In this document: piece after piece, positions 4,798 through 32,608 of the stretch
Position numbering within the stretch: the first letter of the stretch is position 1
Layout: each line of letters begins with the position of its first letter
Virus record (IMG/VR): IMGVR_UViG_2565956714_000004
DNA: 35,772 nucleotides
Reading direction: 5' to 3' (one strand)
DNA from: a virus
Taxonomy: Duplodnaviria; Heunggongvirae; Uroviricota; Caudoviricetes
The notes under the pieces: model-generated
Told to the model about the DNA's origin: nothing
The model's input: the letters and a program-made list of their open reading frames with translations, nothing else
The model's database searches: none
Position numbers and translations under genes: made by a program

Positions 4798-5624
4798 AAG
4801 AAATGCACCACGGAATTCATCATTTCCATGGGACGCCTGTCTGGGGAAGTGCTGGCGACGTTCATCGTATTGCGGTGAGCGGAGCTGGCGCTTTCGTCTC
4901 CTATGTACGACCAGATCAGATTGCGGCGTCCATTCAGCACGCTCAGGTCGTCGGCATTGATAACGGCGCATTTTCTGCATGGGTGCGTGGGCTAAAAATT
5001 AACTGGAGTGATTTTTATAAATGGCTCCTGAACTATTACCACCATCCTAAGGTCGCTTTTTTTGTCATTCCTGATGTTGTGGACGGAGGTGAACGTGACA
5101 ATGATGCCCTGATAAACGAAGTTCCGAAAATGTTCTACGGGAAGGCAACTCCCGTCTGGCATCTGCACGAGTCAATCGAGCGGCTTATCGAGCTATGTCG
5201 TGAATGGCCTCGTGTCTGCTTTGGATCGTCTGGTGAATATGCGGCTATCAGAACTGCGCACTGGCATCGTCGTATGCAGGACGCTTTTGAAGCAATTTAT
5301 TGCCGACACAATTTCAAAACAGCTGTTCATGGTTTGCGCATGCTTGACGGTCGTGTGTTGGGAAATTACCCACTGGCGACTGCCGACAGTACAAATCTTG
5401 CCTGCAATGTCCCCAAATTTAATAGCAAATATCCTGAGCTGACGCGGGCTATTCAGGAGGCTGAGTATTCGCGCAATCTGACGGAAAAGGAGCTGAAAGC
5501 TGTCATTCTGAAAAACCGTTGCGCAATTTTAAAAGGTGCAATTGAAGCTGTTCGCCCACCTTCAGTTTCTGATTGGCTGTCGAATGGTTTGCAGCCTTCA
5601 CAGCTCGAACTGGAGATTGCGTAA
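4794..5624 (+). CDS. unknown protein with TGT (queuine tRNA-ribosyltransferase)/DpdA-like motifs, 276 aa
   Basis: GTG 4794 overlaps the dam stop (alternative ATG at 4803). HGTPVWGS near the N-terminus and VGIDNGAFS resemble the TGT substrate motifs (TP-F-PVGT and D-S-G-G-F-Q); no CxCxxC zinc motif. Assignment tentative. Confidence 0.45.
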
Positions 5625-7996
5625 TGAGCTACAGCTATTCCTGGAATGCTGAGAAAAAAGCAATCAATCCTTACGTAGAGACAGAAGAGCAATCTTCAGT
5701 TTCTGCGCTTTCAAACCTGATCGCTCTGTACGCTGCCGATAACGAGCAGGAACAGCTGCGCCGCGAGGCACTGAGTGATCAGGTCTGGGAGCGTTATTTC
5801 TTTAATGAATCCCGTGATCCTGTCCAGCGCGAAATGGAGCAGGATAAGCTCATTAGTCGGGCAAAGCTGGCGCATGAGCAGCAGCGTTTTAATCCAGATA
5901 TGGTCATTCTGGCGGACGTCAATGCCCAGCCTTCCCATATCAGCAAGCCGCTGATGCAACGTATTGAATACTTCAGCAGCCTGGGCAGGCCAAAGGCTTA
6001 TTCCCGCTATTTGCGTGAGACGATTAAGCCATGTCTGGAACGGCTGGAGCATGTACGCGACTGTCAGCTATCCACTTCTTTTCGCTTTATGGCAAGCCAT
6101 GAAGGGCTGGACGGCCTGCTGATCCTGCCTGAAATGAGTCAGGATCAGGTGAAACGCCTGTCCACCCTGGTAGCTGCGCATATGAGCATGTGCCTTGATG
6201 CAGCTTGTGGCGATTTGTATGTCACCGATGACGTTAAGCCAGAAGAAATCCGCAAGACATGGGAAAAGGTGGCAGCGGAAACCCTGCGTCTGGATGTCAT
6301 CCCGCCTGCGTTTGAGCAACTCCGCCGGAAAAGAAACCGCCGTAAACCCGTGCCCTATGAACTCATTCCGGGTTCGCTGGCGCGTATGTTGTGCGCTGAC
6401 TGGTGGTACCGGAAATTATGGAAGATGCGTTGCGAATGGCGGGAAGAGCAGTTGCGTGCTGTCTGCCTGGTCAGCAAAAAAGCATCTCCCTATGTCAGCT
6501 ATGAAGCCGTGATGCATAAACGTGAGCAGCGCCGTAAGTCGCTGGAGTTTTTTCGTTCTCATGAACTGGTGAACGAAGACGGCGACACGCTGGACATGGA
6601 GGATGTGGTAAACGCCAGCAGCAGCAACCCTGCGCATCGCCGCAATGAGATGATGGCCTGTGTTAAAGGCCTGGAGCTTATCGCGGAAATGCGCGGTGAC
6701 TGCGCCGTTTTCTACACCATCACCTGTCCGTCACGTTTCCATTCCACGCTAAATAATGGCAGGCCCAACCCAACTTGGACAAATGCGACGGTAAGACAAA
6801 GCAGTGATTATCTGGTCGGCATGTTTGCTGCATTTCGTAAGGCGATGCACAAAGCCGGATTGCGGTGGTATGGCGTGCGGGTGGCTGAGCCGCATCATGA
6901 CGGTACAGTTCACTGGCACCTGTTGTGTTTTATGCGCAAAAAAGACCGCCGCGCCATCACTGCATTACTGCGTAAGTTTGCCATCCGTGAAGACCGCGAG
7001 GAACTGGGCAATAACACTGGGCCGCGTTTTAAGTCTGAGTTGATTAACCCGCGCAAAGGTACGCCAACAAGCTACATCGCGAAATACATCAGTAAGAACA
7101 TTGACGGGCGTGGTCTGGCTGGCGAGATCAGCAAGGAAACGGGGAAATCCCTGCGTGATAATGCTGAATACGTTAATGCCTGGGCGTCTTTGCATCGTGT
7201 TCCGCAATTCCGCTTCTTTGGCATTCCGGGGCGTCAGGCTTACCGTGAACTGCGATTGCTGGCTGGTCAGGCGGCAAGGCAACAGGGGGACAAAAAAGCA
7301 GGTGCGCCGGTACTGGATAACCCGCGCCTTGATGCCATCCTGGCTGCTGCTGATGCTGGTTGTTTTGCCACCTACATCATGAAGCAGGGCGGCGTACTGG
7401 TTCCCCGCAAATATCACCTCATCAGAACCGCTTATGAAATCAACGAAGAGCCGACCGCCTATGGCGATCACGGCATTCGTATTTATGGCATCTGGTCACC
7501 TATTGCAGAGGGCAAGATCTGCACTCATGCCGTGAAGTGGAAAATGGTTCGTAAGGCCGTTGATGTTCAGGAGGCGGCAGCCGACCAGGGCGCTTGCGCC
7601 CCTTGGACTCGTGGCAATAACTGTCCCCTTGCTGAAAATTTGAACCAGCAGGAGAAAGATAAATCAGCTGATGGGGACACCAGAACGGACATTACCCGCA
7701 TGGATGACAAGGAGTTGCACGATTATCTGCACAGTATGAGCAAAAAAGAGCGCCGGGAACTGGCTGCAAGGTTACGCCTGGTTAAGCCGAAACGGCGTAA
7801 AGACTACAAACAGCGAATTACAGATCATCAGCGACAGCAGCTCGTCTATGAACTGAAGTCCAGAGGATTTGATGGCAGCGAGAAAGAGGTCGATTTACTC
7901 CTTCGCGGTGGCAGTATTCCGTCAGGAGCAGGCCTGCGTATCTTCTATCGGAACCAGCGTTTGCAGGAAGATGATAAGTGGCGGGATCTGTATTAA
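5624..7996 (+). CDS. A: replication initiator (gpA rolling-circle endonuclease)
   Basis: [15 protein letters not shown] (HUH metal-binding motif) and [14 protein letters not shown] (active-site Tyr region) match P2 gpA; start at ATG 5624 (TAATG overlap with upstream stop). Confidence 0.85.
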
Positions 7997-8958: not shown

Positions 8959-9654
8959 ATGGAATTATTATTTCAAAATTACCAAGCATCATATTTTACA
9001 AACAATTCTGATGTCACTGCTACACCGCCAGTGCTTTCGATGCTGTTGTCTAATTTGGCTGCGTTATCCCTTTTACCCATGTTTGGGCAGGAGTTGAATG
9101 CTTTAACAGGGGAAAAGCGTCAAATAGTTATTATGACTTCGCCTGACCAAAATTTTCGGGTTGAATTTCCCTTGGGGGCTATTGTCTTTCATGGAGTCGG
9201 CGGTTCCAGTGAAGAGTTCATAAATAAAGTTAAAGATATTATGAAGTCTTTACAGTCAATATTCCCTAATAAAAAAGCGACAAGACTGTCAGTTATTAAT
9301 TCATATTTTTATCATGATAGTCAGGATAATTACTCCAGGCTTTACAGAGAGCTATTCACTCATCGTAATGCAGAACCATTTGAATGGGATAATCGTATTG
9401 TTGAGCGAGTCAATTTGAAAAATTTAAATGAGAGTGTGAATAGTGGGAGTACTGTTCGTCGTTGTTTCATTCAGACTCCATTAGTAAATAATAATCATCC
9501 AACAGAAGTAATAAACTTTGAGGTGGATACAAATACATTGGCAGAAAATAATTCGCTTCGGTTTGATTTTAATTCTGCGAACTCTATTGTTAGTGAGTTG
9601 CAAGAAAATAATGCCAATTTAATTGAGCAATTATCTCGTTATACGAATAAGTGA
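8959..9654 (+). CDS. hypothetical protein, cargo operon gene 1 (231 aa)
   Basis: Long ORF in strongly AT-rich DNA, AGGAGG RBS; no recognisable motifs. Confidence 0.6.
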   Translation: MELLFQNYQASYFTNNSDVTATPPVLSMLLSNLAALSLLPMFGQELNALTGEKRQIVIMTSPDQNFRVEFPLGAIVFHGVGGSSEEFINKVKDIMKSLQSIFPNKKATRLSVINSYFYHDSQDNYSRLYRELFTHRNAEPFEWDNRIVERVNLKNLNESVNSGSTVRRCFIQTPLVNNNHPTEVINFEVDTNTLAENNSLRFDFNSANSIVSELQENNANLIEQLSRYTNK

Positions 9655-9661
9655 GGCTGCC

Positions 9662-10321
9662 ATGGATAAAAATTATGGAAATATAATTTTGTCTGAGGCT
9701 TCGTCAGAAGTTAACACTATTATTAATGATAATAACTTTGACCGTTTTTTGGTTAACTCATCAGTATCTGATAACTCAAAAAAATTATCCTCTTATGTAG
9801 CTAACGATATTAGAATAAATTCAAATAAAACAGCAGTTCAAGCTGGCTCGTTTTTTTTGAAAAAAATTGATGATTCAAATAATTCTTTTGAAAGCATAGT
9901 CATTAAAAAACAAAAAATGACTATGAGTTTACTATTTTCAGAAGATTATGTTGAAGGTGAAATCACTAAGACTCAACTTTATCTTGAAGGCCTTTACAAA
10001 GAAAATTCATTTGTTTTTAGGGAGGTTTTTCAACGGGTTTGGTTAGACCTCTTTCGCAATAAAAATACGTATGAATTACGAAATTTCATATGTGTTGCAT
10101 CTTGCTTAGAATATGAAATTCTTGGTGATAAGGCTGATGCTATCATATTGGCTGCATCGGTTTATGATGATAAATATGTAAATGAAGCAGCTCTGCGTGC
10201 GGCAGAAGGATGGGGCAATCCACAACTTGCACTATATCTAAATGGAATAAGAGATTTTGGAATAAGTTGGTTGGATAATTATAAAAAATCTGTCATAGAC
10301 TATTTGGGACGCATGCAATGA
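9662..10321 (+). CDS. hypothetical protein, cargo operon gene 2 (219 aa)
   Basis: ORF starting 7 nt after gene 1 stop with GAGG RBS; AT-rich; no recognisable motifs. Confidence 0.6.
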   Translation: MDKNYGNIILSEASSEVNTIINDNNFDRFLVNSSVSDNSKKLSSYVANDIRINSNKTAVQAGSFFLKKIDDSNNSFESIVIKKQKMTMSLLFSEDYVEGEITKTQLYLEGLYKENSFVFREVFQRVWLDLFRNKNTYELRNFICVASCLEYEILGDKADAIILAASVYDDKYVNEAALRAAEGWGNPQLALYLNGIRDFGISWLDNYKKSVIDYLGRMQ

Positions 10322-10842
10322 GTTATTTGTTAAGAAAAATATCAATTGCAAAATGGGAACCTAACTTAACATTGCAGCCTGATAATTTTTCAGGCGATGC
10401 TATTACTGGGTGTACACGAACAAAGAATAATACTCTTTCTGTTTGGGCTTCAGATTCAATTGACTTTACCACAGAGGATGTCGAGAAAATCGTTGTTGCA
10501 TTAGCTACAACTATGTCCTCGCCTGATATCATTGATCTTATTTGGTTGGATGAGGACTGGCTTAGAGAAAATGGTGTTCAGATAGCTAACAATCCGGGGC
10601 AAAGTAAGTTTGAAGCTGTAAATCCTATGCATAGGGATTTAGTCGCTATTGACCATCGACAACTTGCAATAGTTGGACAACATATAGTAGAGCAATATAA
10701 TGCAAATCCTGAACTGTATTATAAGCGTTATTCTAGGCCAGAAATTATAGCTTTGGTTCATAAATGGTTGACAAAAAATAATACATTTAAGCTAGAGGAT
10801 TTGCATGAGAAATGGGTAAAGCCTCTTGATAAAATAAAATGA
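10318..10842 (+). CDS. hypothetical protein, cargo operon gene 3 (174 aa)
   Basis: ATGA start/stop overlap with gene 2 (translational coupling); AT-rich; no recognisable motifs. Confidence 0.6.
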   Translation: MSYLLRKISIAKWEPNLTLQPDNFSGDAITGCTRTKNNTLSVWASDSIDFTTEDVEKIVVALATTMSSPDIIDLIWLDEDWLRENGVQIANNPGQSKFEAVNPMHRDLVAIDHRQLAIVGQHIVEQYNANPELYYKRYSRPEIIALVHKWLTKNNTFKLEDLHEKWVKPLDKIK

Positions 10843-21508: not shown

Positions 21509-22106
21509 TCTGCTGCCACCGGGTTCAACGCCACTGGAGCGCCGACTGGCGCAAACCTCTAGCGGGATTTCTGATCTGCAGGTGTCACTGCGTGACTTGT
21601 GGAATCCGGCAACCTGTCCGGTCAGTTTCCTGCCTTATCTCGCCTGGGCGTTCTCTGTGGATCGCTGGGACGAGGGCTGGACAGAAAGCGTCAAACGCCA
21701 GGTAGTGAAGGATGCTTTTTATATTCATCAGCACAAAGGAACCACCAGTGCCGTACGGCGGGTGGTGGAGCCGTTCGGCTTCCTGATCCGCATTATTGAG
21801 TGGTGGCAGACCGGAGAAACACCGGGCACGTTTCGTCTGGACATTGGTGTGCAGGACCAGGGCATCACTGAAGATACCTATCTGGAACTTGAGCGATTGA
21901 TAAGCGATGCCAAACCATGTAGCCGTCACATGATCGGCATGTCCATCAATCTGCAGACCAGCGGTCCGCATTGGGTGGGAGCCGCCAGTTATCTTGGCGA
22001 AGAAATCACGATCTATCCGTATATCAACGAAACAATTATTTCCGGCGGCACCGCGCATGAAGGCGGGGCGGTCCATGTTATTGACACAATGAGAGTGAAT
22101 CCATGA
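21501..22106 (+). CDS. I: baseplate/tail protein I (gpI)
   Basis: 201 aa, overlaps J and H as in P2. Confidence 0.75.
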   Translation: MNSLLPPGSTPLERRLAQTSSGISDLQVSLRDLWNPATCPVSFLPYLAWAFSVDRWDEGWTESVKRQVVKDAFYIHQHKGTTSAVRRVVEPFGFLIRIIEWWQTGETPGTFRLDIGVQDQGITEDTYLELERLISDAKPCSRHMIGMSINLQTSGPHWVGAASYLGEEITIYPYINETIISGGTAHEGGAVHVIDTMRVNP

Positions 22107-23632
22107 GCACAAAATTTTATACCCTGCTGACGGATATTGGCGCGGCGAAACTTGCCAGCGCCGCCGCGCTCGGTGTGCCGCTAAAAATTACCCATATGGC
22201 GGTCGGCGATGGCGGCGGAACATTGCCAACGCCGAACGCAAAGCAGACAGCATTAGTAAATGAGAAACGCCGGGCTGCGCTGAATATGCTCTATATCGAC
22301 CCGCAGAACAGCAGCCAGATTATTGCTGAACAGGTGATCCCTGAAAACGAGGGCGGTTGGTGGATACGTGAAGTGGGCCTGTTTGATGAGTCCGGGGCAT
22401 TGATTGCCGTGGGCAACTGCCCGGAAAGCTATAAACCGCAACTGGCTGAAGGCAGCGGGCGTACCCAGACCGTGCGCATGGTGCTGATTACCAGCGGCAC
22501 GGACAATATCACCCTGAGAATCGACCCTGCCGTAGTGCTGGCAACCCGCAAGTATGTGGATGACAAGGCACTGGAGCTGAAGGTGTACGCGGATGATCAG
22601 ATGGCAAAACATCTTGCCGCACCGGACCCGCATTCACAGTATGCACCCAAAGAAAGTCCGACGTTTACCGGGACACCCAAAGCGCCAACGCCAGCCGCAG
22701 GGAATAACACCACGCAGATTGCGACCACCGCGTTTGTTCAGGCGGCTCTGACGGCTCTTATTAATGGTGCGCCAGCCACGCTGGACACGCTGAAAGAAAT
22801 AGCCGCAGCCATTAACAATGATCCGAAATTCAGTACCACCATTAACAATGCGCTGGCACTGAAAGCGCCGCTGTCGAGTCCGGCACTCACCGGAACGCCA
22901 ACCGCACCTACTGCGGCACAGTCGGTCAACAATACACAGATTGCCACTACGGCTTTTGTGAAATCGGCGATTGCGGCAATGGTGGGTTCTGCACCTGCTG
23001 CACTGGATACACTGAACGAACTGGCGGCGGCGCTGGGAAATGACCCGAACTTTGCCACGACAATGGTGAATGCTCTGTCAGGTAAACAACCGCTGGACAA
23101 TACGCTGACTAATTTGAGTGGAAAGGATGTAGCTGGTCTTCTCACATACCTTGGTTTGGGAGAAGGCTCTGCATTACCTGTTGGTGTGCCTGTTCCATGG
23201 CCTTCAGCCACACCGCCAACAGGCTGGCTGAAATGCAACGGTGCGGCTTTTTCTGCTGAAGAATACCCGGAACTGGCAAAGGCTTATCCGACAAATAAAT
23301 TGCCTGATTTACGTGGTGAGTTTATTCGTGGCTGGGATGACGGGCGCGGTATTGATGCAGGACGTGTTTTATTGAGCATTCAGACAGGGATGCTGGAAAA
23401 ACACCGCCATATTGTTGTTGCCAATGATGGTTACGACACAAAAGATGAATGGGAACTGGCTACGATTTTCAAAAAGACATACACACAAGGACGGGGACTT
23501 GATGCCACAAATACAGGAGGGAGTCTGATCCCATCACCGACACTTCATTCACGAGGGAGTATCGGTAATACTGGCGGGAGTGAAACCCGTCCACGAAATA
23601 TTGCATTTAACTATATCGTGAGGGCTGCATAA
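22103..23632 (+). CDS. H: tail fiber protein H (constant N-terminus plus currently expressed variable C-terminus)
   Basis: 509 aa; N-terminus MSTKFYTLLTDIGAAKLA typical of P2 H; contains a hix/gix-like crossover site at 23139..23164. Confidence 0.85.
   Translation: MSTKFYTLLTDIGAAKLASAAALGVPLKITHMAVGDGGGTLPTPNAKQTALVNEKRRAALNMLYIDPQNSSQIIAEQVIPENEGGWWIREVGLFDESGALIAVGNCPESYKPQLAEGSGRTQTVRMVLITSGTDNITLRIDPAVVLATRKYVDDKALELKVYADDQMAKHLAAPDPHSQYAPKESPTFTGTPKAPTPAAGNNTTQIATTAFVQAALTALINGAPATLDTLKEIAAAINNDPKFSTTINNALALKAPLSSPALTGTPTAPTAAQSVNNTQIATTAFVKSAIAAMVGSAPAALDTLNELAAALGNDPNFATTMVNALSGKQPLDNTLTNLSGKDVAGLLTYLGLGEGSALPVGVPVPWPSATPPTGWLKCNGAAFSAEEYPELAKAYPTNKLPDLRGEFIRGWDDGRGIDAGRVLLSIQTGMLEKHRHIVVANDGYDTKDEWELATIFKKTYTQGRGLDATNTGGSLIPSPTLHSRGSIGNTGGSETRPRNIAFNYIVRAA
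23139..23164. repeat. invertase crossover site (hix/gix-like), left: TTCTCACATACC-TT-GGTTTGGGAGAA
   Basis: 26-bp imperfect palindrome with 2-bp core inside H; inverted copy at 24981..25006 shares GGTTTGGGAGAA. Confidence 0.7.
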
Positions 23633-24234
23633 TGGATAACGCCGTATTAAATAGCGAGCTTATTGCCACGAAGGCGGGGAATATTACCGTCTATAACTAT
23701 GATGGTAAAACTCGGGAATATATTTCTACTTCAAATGAATATCTTGCCATTGGTGTCGGTATCCCTGCATATTCCTGTCTGGATGAACCTGGTATACATA
23801 AGGCGGGTTATGCTATCTGCCGTTCGATGGATTTAAACTCATGGGAATATGTGCCAGACCATCGCGGTGAAATCGTCTATAACACCGAAACGGGAGACGC
23901 CAAAGAAATCACAGCTCCGGGTGATTATCCTGAAAATACAACCACTATCGCCCCGTTAACGCCATTCGATAAATGGGATGGTAAGAAATGGGTGACCGAT
24001 ACTGAGGCACAGCATAGCGCCGCAGTAGACGCGGCAGAAGTACAGCGTCAGTCACTGATTAATACTGCAATGGCTTCCATTAGTCTGATTCAACTTAAAT
24101 TGCAGGCCGGGCGGAAGCTGATGCAGGCAGAGACCACCCGACTTAACACTGTGCTGGATTACATTGACGCGGTGACGGCAACAGATACCAGCACAGCGCC
24201 GGATGTCATCTGGCCTGAACTGCCGGAGGCGTAG
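23632..24234 (+). CDS. G: tail fiber assembly protein (gpG/Tfa), currently expressed copy
   Basis: 200 aa; C-terminal LDYIDAV...DTS..PDV.WPELP typical of Tfa chaperones. Confidence 0.8.
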   Translation: MDNAVLNSELIATKAGNITVYNYDGKTREYISTSNEYLAIGVGIPAYSCLDEPGIHKAGYAICRSMDLNSWEYVPDHRGEIVYNTETGDAKEITAPGDYPENTTTIAPLTPFDKWDGKKWVTDTEAQHSAAVDAAEVQRQSLINTAMASISLIQLKLQAGRKLMQAETTRLNTVLDYIDAVTATDTSTAPDVIWPELPEA

Positions 24235-24643
24235 GCCATTCAATATCTGGCACACTGGAGGTATCAACCAGCTCCAGTGCGTCCAGGTAATCCAGCCACA
24301 AATTATATTGCGCCAGTTCCTCGTCTTTCAGACGACCAATAGCGGCTTTACCGGGCCATTGTTTACTGTTCATGTATTCGTTGGCCTGATTAAGCAATAA
24401 TTGCCTTTCTGATTCTGCCTGTTGAATAAGTTCTTCATGTGATGGTGGAGGTATTAGTGCCCATGTGGGTAATCCATTTTCTCCTGCAACACGAATTTTG
24501 CCATCTGGGGGCGTATTTATTGCAAATTCATTATAAACATCATCACTGACAGCCAGAGCATCATCTGGCCATGAATTTGCATTAATGTAATCATCCTTAA
24601 GTGCAGGATTCACAAAAATGTTTAAAGATGGACTATAAAACAT
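24206..24643 (-). CDS. alternative tail fiber assembly protein (Tfa') in invertible segment
   Basis: 145 aa with the same conserved C-terminal motif (WLDYLDAL...DTSSVPDIEWP); convergent with G. Confidence 0.75.
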   Translation of the reverse strand: MFYSPSLNIFVNPALKDDYINANSWPDDALAVSDDVYNEFAINTPPDGKIRVAGENGLPTWALIPPPSHEELIQQAESERQLLLNQANEYMNSKQWPGKAAIGRLKDEELAQYNLWLDYLDALELVDTSSVPDIEWPTPPAVQAR

Positions 24644-24644
24644 A

Positions 24645-24992
24645 TTACACCCCTATAGCGATATAACGACCTAATACAGCGTTTGCAGCAGTCGCTATGC
24701 TTGAAAAACCGCGGAACTGATTTGATGTAATTGCAGAAGCCGACAGGATTCCTGCACCTGAAGGTGTATGCCCCACATGACTAACTATCATTCCATAACA
24801 TGCTGACGGAAAGGCAAAAGGAAAATCATTAAGATATCCGGCATCTTCACCACCAGACCCACCAAATCTCGCCTGCCCCCACTGAATAATCAGTGTTCTC
24901 CGGGAACCTGAAATAATTAACGGAATCGTTACATACCCATTCAGACCAATGACACCCGATGCAGTGCCAGCCAGAGATAATTCTCCCAAACC
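24645..24992 (-). CDS. alternative tail fiber variable C-terminal segment (silent until inversion)
   Basis: Minus-strand frame encodes VGLGELS at the crossover site, paralleling LGLGEGS in H at the other site; no independent start expected. Confidence 0.65.
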   Translation of the reverse strand, partial: GLGELSLAGTASGVIGLNGYVTIPLIISGSRRTLIIQWGQARFGGSGGEDAGYLNDFPFAFPSACYGMIVSHVGHTPSGAGILSASAITSNQFRGFSSIATAANAVLGRYIAIGV

Positions 24993-25006
24993 AACGTTTA
25001 AGAAAA
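24981..25006. repeat. invertase crossover site, right: TTCTCCCAAACC-AA-CGTTTAAGAAAA
   Basis: Inverted copy of the site in H; 2-bp cores are complementary, as required for inversion. Confidence 0.7.
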
Positions 25007-25061
25007 TGCAGAGGTAACAGCTAACTGGCATCATCCCCGGTTTTTAGTCAGGGGGATAATC

Positions 25062-25628
25062 ATGCTTATTGGCTATGTACGCGTGTCAACAAATGACCAG
25101 AACACCGATTTGCAACGTAATGCACTGAACTGCGCGGGATGTGAGCGGATTTTTGAGGATAAAATCAGTGGCACTAAGTCCGACAGACCGGGGCTGAAAA
25201 AACTGCTCAGGACACTATCGGCAGGAGACACGCTGGTTGTCTGGAAGCTAGACAGGTTGGGGCGCAGTATGCGGCATCTTGTTACGCTGATAGAAGAGTT
25301 GCGTCAGCGTGGCGTGAATTTCCGAAGCCTGACTGACAGTATTGATACCAGCACCCCAATGGGCCGTTTCTTTTTTCATGTCATGGGAGCCCTGGCTGAA
25401 ATGGAACGCGAACTGATAGTTGAACGTACCAGGGCAGGGCTGGCTGCAGCTCGTGCCAAAGGCAGAGTAGGTGGACGCCGTCCTAAGTTGACCACTGAAC
25501 AGTGGGCACAGATTGGACGTTTACTCGAGGCCGGAGAATCAAGACAGCGTATTGCACTGATTTTTGATGTAGGCGTTTCTACCATTTATAGAAAATTTCC
25601 GGCAAATAAGAGCAATGAATCCCCCTGA
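25062..25628 (+). CDS. serine DNA invertase (Gin/Hin/Pin/Cin family)
   Basis: MLIGYVRVSTNDQNTDLQ (catalytic Ser motif) and C-terminal HTH GVSTIYRKF; 188 aa. Confidence 0.9.
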   Translation: MLIGYVRVSTNDQNTDLQRNALNCAGCERIFEDKISGTKSDRPGLKKLLRTLSAGDTLVVWKLDRLGRSMRHLVTLIEELRQRGVNFRSLTDSIDTSTPMGRFFFHVMGALAEMERELIVERTRAGLAAARAKGRVGGRRPKLTTEQWAQIGRLLEAGESRQRIALIFDVGVSTIYRKFPANKSNESP

Positions 25629-25676
25629 ATCAGCATAATTTTGATTATCCCTGCAAGCAGACAAATACCGTCATTT

Positions 25677-31029: not shown

Positions 31030-31511
31030 TGATGGTGCTGGGATTGTACGTGTTTATGCTGCGCACCGTACCGTATCAGGAGCTGCAGTATCAACGCAGC
31101 TGGCGACATGCGGCAAACAGTCGGGTAAATCGTCGTCCGTCCACGCAGTTTCTGGGACCGGACAACGACATGCTGACGCTTTCTGGTGTTCTTATGCCGG
31201 AGATAACAGGCGGCAGGCTGTCGTTGCTGGCACTGGAGCAGATGGCAGAACAGGGGAAAGCATGGCCCCTGATTGAAGGCAGCGGCACGATTTATGGCAT
31301 GTATGTGATTGAGGGACTGAATCAGACTAAAACGGAGTTTTTCCGCGATGGTATGCCGCGCCGGATTGAGTTCACCCTGTCGCTCAAACGGGTGGATGAA
31401 TCCCTGTCCGATATGTTCGGTGATCTCAGTACGCAACTGAATAATCTGCAGGACACGGCAACATCTGCCTTAAGTGATATCAGTAAAACGGTGGGAGGGC
31501 TGCTGTCGTGA
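31026..31511 (+). CDS. U: tail protein U (gpU)
   Basis: 161 aa, P2 gpU size and position; overlaps T and D. Confidence 0.8.
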   Translation: MMMVLGLYVFMLRTVPYQELQYQRSWRHAANSRVNRRPSTQFLGPDNDMLTLSGVLMPEITGGRLSLLALEQMAEQGKAWPLIEGSGTIYGMYVIEGLNQTKTEFFRDGMPRRIEFTLSLKRVDESLSDMFGDLSTQLNNLQDTATSALSDISKTVGGLLS

Positions 31512-32608
31512 ATTTCAGCTCTGAACTGCTTAACAAAGGCAACAAAACTCCCGCATTCAGCATCAGTATTGAGGGCAGGGATATCACTACTGTGCTGGAT
31601 AACCGTCTGATGAGTCTGACGTTGACGGACAATCGGGGCTTTGACGCGGACCAGCTTGATCTGGAGCTGGACGACGCCGACGGAAAAATCGTGCTGCCGC
31701 GCCGTGGTGCGGTCATTACGCTGGCGCTGGGCTGGAAGGGGCAGCCGCTTTTCCCGAAAGGGACATTCACGGTGGACGAGATTGAACACACTGGCGCACC
31801 GGACCGCCTGACTATCCGGGCGCGAAGTGCTGATTTTCGGGAAACGCTGAATACCCGCCGTGAAAAATCGTGGCATAAGACCACCGTCGGGGAAGTGGTG
31901 AAGGAAATAGCCGCGCGGCACAAGCTGAAGATGGCACTGGGTAAAGACCTGTCGGATAAGCCCGTGGAGCATATAGACCAGACTAATGAGAGTGACGGCA
32001 GTTTTCTGATGCGGCTGGCGCGACAGTACGGTGCCATCGCGTCGGTGAAAAATGGCAATCTGTTATTCATCCGGCAGGGGCAGGGCAAAAGCGCCACTGG
32101 TAAACCTCTGCCAGTGATCACTATCACACGCAAGGACGGCGACAGTCACCGATTTACCCTGGCAGATCGCGGAGCCTACACGGGCGTAATTGCCAGCTGG
32201 TTGCATACCCGCGAACCTGCGAAGAAAGAAAGCACCACGGTGAAGCGTAAGCGCAGAACTAAGAAGCAGAAGAAAGAGCCAGAAGCGAAGCAGGGCGATT
32301 ACCTGGTGGGTACGGATGAAAACGTGCTGGTACTTAATCGCACTTATGCCAACCGGAGCAACGCCGAACGAGCGGCGAAAATGCAGTGGGAACGCCTGCA
32401 ACGCGGCGTTGCGTCATTTTCGCTACAACTGGCAGAAGGGCGGGCAGATCTCTACACGGAAATGCCTGTGAAGGTCAGTGGTTTTAAACAGCCGATAGAT
32501 GATGCGGAATGGACCATTACGACTCTGACGCATACCGTCAGCCCGGATAACGGTTTTACGACCAGTCTGGAGCTTGAAGTGAGGATTGATGATTTCGAAA
32601 TGGAATGA
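31508..32608 (+). CDS. D: tail protein D (gpD)
   Basis: 366 aa, GTG start overlapping the U stop; P2 gpD size and position. Confidence 0.8.
   Translation: MNFSSELLNKGNKTPAFSISIEGRDITTVLDNRLMSLTLTDNRGFDADQLDLELDDADGKIVLPRRGAVITLALGWKGQPLFPKGTFTVDEIEHTGAPDRLTIRARSADFRETLNTRREKSWHKTTVGEVVKEIAARHKLKMALGKDLSDKPVEHIDQTNESDGSFLMRLARQYGAIASVKNGNLLFIRQGQGKSATGKPLPVITITRKDGDSHRFTLADRGAYTGVIASWLHTREPAKKESTTVKRKRRTKKQKKEPEAKQGDYLVGTDENVLVLNRTYANRSNAERAAKMQWERLQRGVASFSLQLAEGRADLYTEMPVKVSGFKQPIDDAEWTITTLTHTVSPDNGFTTSLELEVRIDDFEME

Follow-up and report, generated by a model that had tools for sequence, protein, structure and literature searches.

Does the tail-fibre gene in virus record IMGVR_UViG_2565956714_000004 encode one fibre or two? 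The stretch of DNA that was analyzed (35,772 nt; hereafter the window) contains a P2-type tail-fibre gene, H, and the initial annotation, made from the letters alone, proposed that the 3′ part of this gene lies in an invertible segment bounded by two inverted crossover sites and followed by a serine invertase. Our analysis makes it very likely that a site-specific inversion switch of Pin type (Din family) determines which tip the tail fibre of this P2-like and apparently complete prophage receives. Such a system is not new: the mechanism and the site sequence have been described, and its occurrence in P2-like prophages of E. coli has been documented.

Organization of the Invertible Segment

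In the orientation present in the window, H (22103–23632, plus strand) was found to encode a protein of 509 aa with a Phage_tail_fib N-terminal domain and a Collar domain at residues 361–408 (Pfam). The left crossover site lies inside this open reading frame (ORF), at the border between the constant shaft and the receptor-binding tip. The inverted 26-bp sites described in the initial annotation were present at the positions it had given (Table 1); aligned in the same orientation, they have 21 of 26 positions in common and share a TT core. As a pair they constitute the top-ranked inverted repeat of the region (26 nt, 81% complementary, 1,816 nt between the arms). Each site has imperfect 12-bp half-sites flanking a 2-bp core, the two are in inverted orientation, and they can be aligned with the e14, cix and gix sites. 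The 14-mer TTGGTTTGGGAGAA is found exactly in both sites and nowhere else in the 35.8-kb window, even with two mismatches allowed, compared to a chance expectation of 0.27 matches on average (shuffled sequence). The segment, previously put at ~1.84 kb, measures 1,844 bp from core to core.

In silico inversion of positions 23151–24994 kept the reading frame, the loss of which would have spoken against a switch, and gave a fibre of 465 aa. The products of the two orientations thus have a common prefix of 354 aa, followed by either 155 residues (collar tip, 509 aa in total) or 111 new residues (gp53-like tip, 465 aa in total). The initial annotation was right that the alternative C-terminus is in frame, but the length of 116 aa that it gave has to be corrected to 111 aa past the shared GLGE, because it had counted from the V of VGLGE and five of its residues are encoded by the site.

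The segment consists of two pairs of tip and chaperone genes arranged tail to tail. The swap of Tfa chaperones that had been proposed (G versus the minus-strand Tfa′) agrees with this organization, both ORFs matching Caudo_TAP, with one such gene behind each tip. Tfa′ is convergent with G, and the two genes overlap by 29 nt. Fibre stop and chaperone start are closely linked in both orientations, as TAATG at present and as TAA-T-ATG after inversion. Compared to NCBIfam, no match reaching a family cut-off was found for any of the five cassette proteins.

The collar tip was shown to be identical to StfE of the K-12 element e14 in its first 63 and last 17 residues, with a divergent middle part, and G showed 87% identity to e14 TfaE. 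The other pair is more distant: the C-terminal half of Tfa′ is 50% identical to e14 TfaP, and the gp53-like tip is distant kin of K-12 StfP (36% identity over just 64 aa). The collar tip was also considered as a relative of Mu S; no similarity was found, so the receptor specificity of Mu is not transferable to it.

Another inverted repeat within the segment (24153–24170 and 24279–24296) was rejected as a recombination site, as it corresponds to a motif that is conserved at the C-termini of both convergent chaperones. Shufflons and other multiple-inversion systems, of which R64 Rci and p15B Min are examples, are characterized by more than two crossover sites and hence by several permutations, and R64 uses a tyrosine recombinase. 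Such a system was discarded for this locus, which has just two sites in the window and a serine-type recombinase; no third crossover site was found in the window, either with TTGGTTTGGGAGAA at up to two mismatches or with the palindromic centre AAACCNNGGTTT at up to one mismatch.

Table 1. Positions of the features of the cassette in the window, and crossover sites of known systems in the same orientation
Feature	Position	Strand	Description
H constant part, 354 aa	22103–23164	+	Ends ...LLTYLGLGE (site-encoded); Pfam Phage_tail_fib N-terminal domain, E = 1e-64
Left crossover site (pix/cix/gix-like, 26 bp)	23139–23164	+	TTCTCACATACC-TT-GGTTTGGGAGAA; core TT at 23151–23152
Invertible segment	23151–24994		1,844 bp, core to core; basis, segment identity to flipped relatives
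Tip 1, expressed now, 155-aa collar-type C-terminus, StfE-like	23165–23632	+	Pfam Collar, E = 4e-15
Chaperone of tip 1 (G/TfaE-like, 200 aa)	23632–24234	+	Pfam Caudo_TAP, E = 3e-31
Chaperone of tip 2 (Tfa′, 145 aa)	24206–24643	-	Pfam Caudo_TAP, E = 7e-35
Tip 2, promoter-distal now, 111-aa gp53-like C-terminus	24645–24980	-	Pfam Gp53-like_C, E = 1e-12
Right crossover site	24981–25006	-	Minus strand reads TTTTCTTAAACG-TT-GGTTTGGGAGAA; core 24993–24994
Pin/Gin/Cin-type serine DNA invertase, 188 aa	25062–25628	+	Pfam Resolvase and HTH_7
Recombinational (Fis-dependent) enhancer homologue, putative	25080–25151	+	Inside the 5′ end of the invertase gene
e14 PinE-proximal site			TTTTCATAAACG-TT-GGTTTGGGAGAA
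P1 cixR			TTATCCAATACC-TT-GGTTTAAGAGAA
Mu gix			TTATCCAAAACC-TC-GGTTTACAGGAA

Both Orientations in Natural Relatives

The region of 2,801 bp was flipped in silico and searched against 5,426 complete E. coli genomes. The flipped form was found as one contiguous match over its full length (97.6–98.2% DNA identity) in strains ST95-32, VTB97584v and PSJ-12, in all of which H is annotated with 1,398 nt, exactly the 465 aa predicted. The orientation of the window was matched over its whole length in five other strains. Records containing at least 80% of the region were divided into 35 with the window orientation and 26 with the flipped one.

A base-level comparison located the switch point: the sequences swap directly after GGTTTGGGAGAA at both ends, and the flanks stay collinear. 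Compared to three relatives (L002, L004, and L005), the segment showed 27% identity as read and 98.8–99.8% identity once flipped. The near-isogenic prophages of SHP24 and VTB97584v were identical at 351 of 352 and 3702 of 3706 positions in the flanks, and their segments at 1835 of 1844 positions, the latter only after flipping. These comparisons among relatives provide strong evidence for inversion at the predicted sites.

In a census of junctions in the complete E. coli genomes, H joined to the collar tip was found in 477 genomes and this H joined to the gp53-like tip in 28. These counts were not accepted as an orientation bias, because partner modules of many kinds occur with the collar tip.

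Decay was also seen among the relatives. IS421 and IS1A insertions were found in or beside the cassette in N18-04097 (H2) and G5 (H25), a deletion in SHP24 (L003) has left a partial H without its N-terminus directly after lysB, and PEC422 (L001) has a frameshifted sheath gene. Unlike in these relatives, the genes of the cassette region in the window are intact.

Invertase and Enhancer

The initial annotation's claim of an intact serine invertase of the Gin/Hin family was borne out. The protein contains the Resolvase domain at residues 3–135 (E = 2e-53) and HTH_7 at residues 138–181 (E = 1e-15), and it aligned over its full length (residues 1–184) with the Gin crystal structures 3uj3 and 4m6f (E = 8e-93). 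It showed 87% identity to e14 PinE, 79% to P1 Cin, and 75% to Mu Gin. Residues Y5, R7, S9, Q13, D64, R65, and R68 are kept, and so are H106 and M114, which we take to be positions altered in Fis-independent mutants; the 3uj3 chain has V in place of the M114 that the invertase of the window shares with wild-type Mu Gin. The protein thus looks like a normal, enhancer-dependent member of the Din family (Hin/Gin/Cin/Pin), of which the following traits are present: a small serine recombinase, a C-terminal helix-turn-helix, kinship to characterized members, and paired 26-bp sites. Judged from these similarities, invertase and sites are specifically of the e14 Pin type, as seen from the 87% identity to PinE and from a right site that departs from the PinE-proximal site of e14 at a single position of 26.

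The invertase gene is located between G and FI, the sheath gene. It is flanked almost exactly by a 17-nt inverted repeat (25053–25069 and 25635–25651; 82% complementary, with a perfect GGGATAATC/GATTATCCC) that is probably due to chance.

The enhancer annotated in the P1 record covers nucleotides +19 to +90 of cin, and its counterpart was located in the 5′ end of the invertase gene of the window (Table 1). This putative enhancer is identical to that of P1 at 56 of 72 positions (Mu gin, 55 of 72; e14 pin, 57 of 72), which exceeds the 66–72% identity of the remaining gene. It contains two Fis-like 15-mers, GTGTCAACAAATGAC at 25083–25097 and GCGCGGGATGTGAGC at 25132–25146, in which the outer G and C are kept, with TAATG between them; TAATG has also been described in the spacer of the hin enhancer (PMC3798978). 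The invertase gene with its enhancer homologue is situated ~70 bp from the right site, and the centre of the first 15-mer was computed to be ~96 bp from the centre of that site, a geometry as in Mu and e14.

Several points weigh against the interpretation as an active switch. The evidence for inversion is comparative and comes from relatives rather than from the source strain, and it is by homology only that Fis binding and enhancer function are suggested. The distal Fis-like 15-mer has a G/C-rich centre, although P1 and Mu are the same there. A sigma-70 scan with a simple pattern, and for that reason uninformative, detected no promoter upstream of the invertase gene (25062). The consequence for host range, finally, is something that we infer.

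The result of the promoter scan would also suit a fossil switch, i.e., an intact architecture in which this copy of the invertase lacks expression or activity and the prophage is fixed in the collar-tip orientation. The visible decay in N18-04097 and G5 (IS elements), SHP24 (deletion) and PEC422 (frameshift) points the same way, and so would the much commoner H–collar junction, were that contrast not confounded by the many partner modules of the collar tip. Against this, the invertase ORF is full length and keeps all catalytic residues, sites and cores are intact and match the experimentally active sites of e14, and both orientations occur among near-isogenic relatives. A fossil switch is therefore considered very unlikely compared to the Pin-type switch.

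Invertases of the Din family cross-complement each other, and the segment might be inverted mainly by enzymes encoded elsewhere in the cell, such as PinE, PinQ, and PinR of cryptic prophages. PinQ, PinR, and PinE were all reported to invert the e14 P segment, which has an identical repeat, PinQ being the dominant one there (PMC12529663). On the other hand, the window contains a complete cognate invertase with an enhancer homologue in the Mu/e14 geometry, and the cassette moves between unrelated prophages together with most of the invertase gene (95% identity to about nucleotide 460). Catalysis mainly in trans is thus unlikely, but a contribution of invertases encoded elsewhere is plausible and compatible with the Pin-type switch proposed here.

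Comparison to Known Inversion Systems

The closest system was found to be the P segment of e14, which has the same order of constant part, site, tip and Tfa, Tfa′ and second tip, site, and invertase. Core and inner half-site do not differ between e14 and the window (TT-GGTTTGGGAGAA in both), the distance from site to enhancer is the same within ~1 bp, and the segment of e14 is 1,797 bp compared to 1,844 bp in the window. In addition to the similarities of PinE, TfaE, and StfE given above, this very cassette is present at 95% identity in an e14-type prophage of other strains. The two differ in that e14 is a defective element with a short StfP N-terminus, whereas the window has the 354-aa shaft of P2 H type in a complete-looking P2-like prophage. 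They also differ in the outer half of the left site (CTCTCGAAAACC in e14, TTCTCACATACC in the window) and in the tip, K-12 StfP being only distantly related to the gp53-like tip.

Inversion in e14 has been established experimentally. The repeats of its P segment were given as TTGGTTTGGGAGAAGG and the complement (Kirigo et al., 2025; PMC12529663), and inversion of the 1,797-bp segment by PinE, PinQ, and PinR was shown by sequencing and qPCR in the same study. The sequence TTGGTTTGGGAGAAGG, thus shown to invert in e14, is the repeat common to both sites of the window. Inversion in e14 was also confirmed by PCR by Goldberg et al. (2014; PMC4272514), who in addition reported inversions in two P2-like prophages of enteropathogenic E. 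coli (EPEC), one of ~1,800 bp, and validated by PCR four coexisting variants at an EPEC locus with three repeats. Compared by description, these P2-like loci of EPEC E2348/69, for which the coexistence of orientations was confirmed, resemble the window in that an invertase and inverted repeats lead to alternative fibre C-termini (PMC4272514), but differ in that one of them has three repeats and four variants, as opposed to the two sites in the window.

The G segment of Mu shows the same order (S-U, U′-S′, then gin), a site inside S, an invertase with 75% identity, and an enhancer in the 5′ end of the invertase gene. It differs in length (~3 kb), in the gix core (TC/GA instead of TT), and in its unrelated tips. 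The C segment of P1 shares the TT core, a close inner half-site (GGTTTAAGAGAA), an invertase (Cin) with 79% identity, and a homologous annotated enhancer, but the 3′ end of cin abuts cixL and the segment is 4.2 kb. The Hin/hix system of Salmonella likewise has 26-bp sites, a Fis-dependent enhancer, and a serine invertase (PMC3798978). Unlike the system in the window, which swaps coding sequence and has its invertase outside the segment, Hin flips a promoter and lies in its own segment.

Prophage Context and Mobility of the Cassette

From its gene content, the window appears to be a complete P2-like (Peduovirinae) prophage. Genes of the P2-like set were detected by Pfam: the integrase (1–1131), gene A (GPA; 5573–7996), and gene D (GPD; 31508–32608). 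The relative PEC422 (99.9% identity) has the order V-W-J-I-H-G...FI-FII-E-T in its annotation, P2-like phage records showed 96% identity over 85% of 24.8 kb, and the prophage adjoins the host genes ybjL and ybjM.

BCE049 (L010; 5992–8375, corresponding to 23139–25523 of the window) has the same cassette, 95% identical, in a prophage of e14 type whose baseplate genes are Mu-like. The constant part of the fibre is much shorter there, and the homology extends from inside the left site to ~460 nt into the invertase gene. Two strains that share a rare cargo with the window (see below) have other fibre modules. J2 (L011) has a long, non-invertible fibre of 757 aa with one chaperone and no invertase, and in 210205630 (L012) the invertase protein is the same as in PEC422, but the segment is different and shorter. 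J2 and 210205630 show that fibre modules are mosaic within one prophage lineage. Because of the cassette in BCE049 and the differing modules in these two strains, the cassette is regarded as a mobile module that is passed between unrelated prophage types together with most of the invertase gene. This agrees with the lower GC content of the invertible segment (46–47% versus 55–58% in the flanks). The idea of cassette exchange reportedly goes back to Sandmeier, Iida and Arber and to Haggard-Ljungquist in the early 1990s.

The cargo mentioned above (8959–10842, plus strand) consists of three co-directional, overlapping ORFs of 231, 232, and 174 aa and is located between a DinI-like gene and gene A on one side and the portal gene on the other, a cargo hotspot of P2. 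Its GC content is 33–36%, compared to ~55% in the prophage. No match to Pfam or PADLOC was found for it, and the only PHROGs that the ORFs match (19817, 21208, and 10743) have no known function. The DNA was present in none of 50,697 phage records and in 2 of the 5,426 complete E. coli genomes, those of J2 and 210205630, where it is annotated as three hypothetical proteins. It is a candidate accessory or anti-phage operon, unrelated to the fibre switch.

The Promoter-Distal ORF

The tip that faces away from H is part of a 129-aa ORF (24645–25034, minus strand), which starts with ATGATG at 25034 and has a 13-codon leader, MMPVSCYLCIFLN, starting outside the invertible segment. The ATGATG was kept and the frame of the leader was open in all eight cassettes examined (the window, L001–L005, L009, and L010), with variation at residues 4–9. 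RefSeq calls this ORF a separate coding sequence (CDS), a "gp53-like domain-containing protein".

A free protein made of leader and tip could be expressed in the lysogen and mask the receptor, as claimed for StfE2 of e14, though we regard such expression as very doubtful. If true, one flip would change the host range of the virion and the phage resistance of the lysogen together. A further step would be to see protection of the lysogen as the main selected function of the locus, with the promoter-distal copy acting as a small receptor-masking protein. The ORF has its own ATGATG and a leader that is open even in e14, and the analogous e14 product was reported to block adsorption of T2 (Kirigo et al., 2025; PMC12529663). 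This interpretation is, however, scarcely probable. The gp53-like part shows the low similarity to K-12 StfP given above, and the prophage looks complete, so that its virions need a fibre. The leader shares sequence with the outer half-site and, probably, with the control region of the invertase gene, which could themselves account for its conservation, and no promoter-like site was found for the minus-strand ORF by the simple, uninformative sigma-70 scan.

Proposed Mechanism and Implications

By the sequence, the pair that faces H continues the constant part in frame, and it is read along with the late tail operon. For the Pin-type switch, the following course is proposed. Invertase dimers would bind both sites, which would be joined at the Fis-bound enhancer within the first 90 bp of the invertase gene. 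Ser9 would then cut both strands at the cores with a 2-bp stagger, half of the tetramer would turn by 180 degrees, and the ends would be rejoined. With the non-palindromic TT core, only the inverted product could be ligated. Dimer binding, assembly at the enhancer, cutting, rotation, and inversion-only ligation are taken over from the well-studied family. A population of lysogens would in this way release mixed virions with two adsorption specificities, a form of host-range bet-hedging.

Our results add nothing new to the biology of DNA inversion. They bear on annotation: the prophage can make two tail fibres, one of 509 aa and one of 465 aa, and what RefSeq calls as the CDS of a "gp53-like domain-containing protein" is the alternative fibre tip and no separate gene. 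The two-fibre switch affects the prediction of host range from sequence, and it explains differences between assemblies of related strains at this locus.

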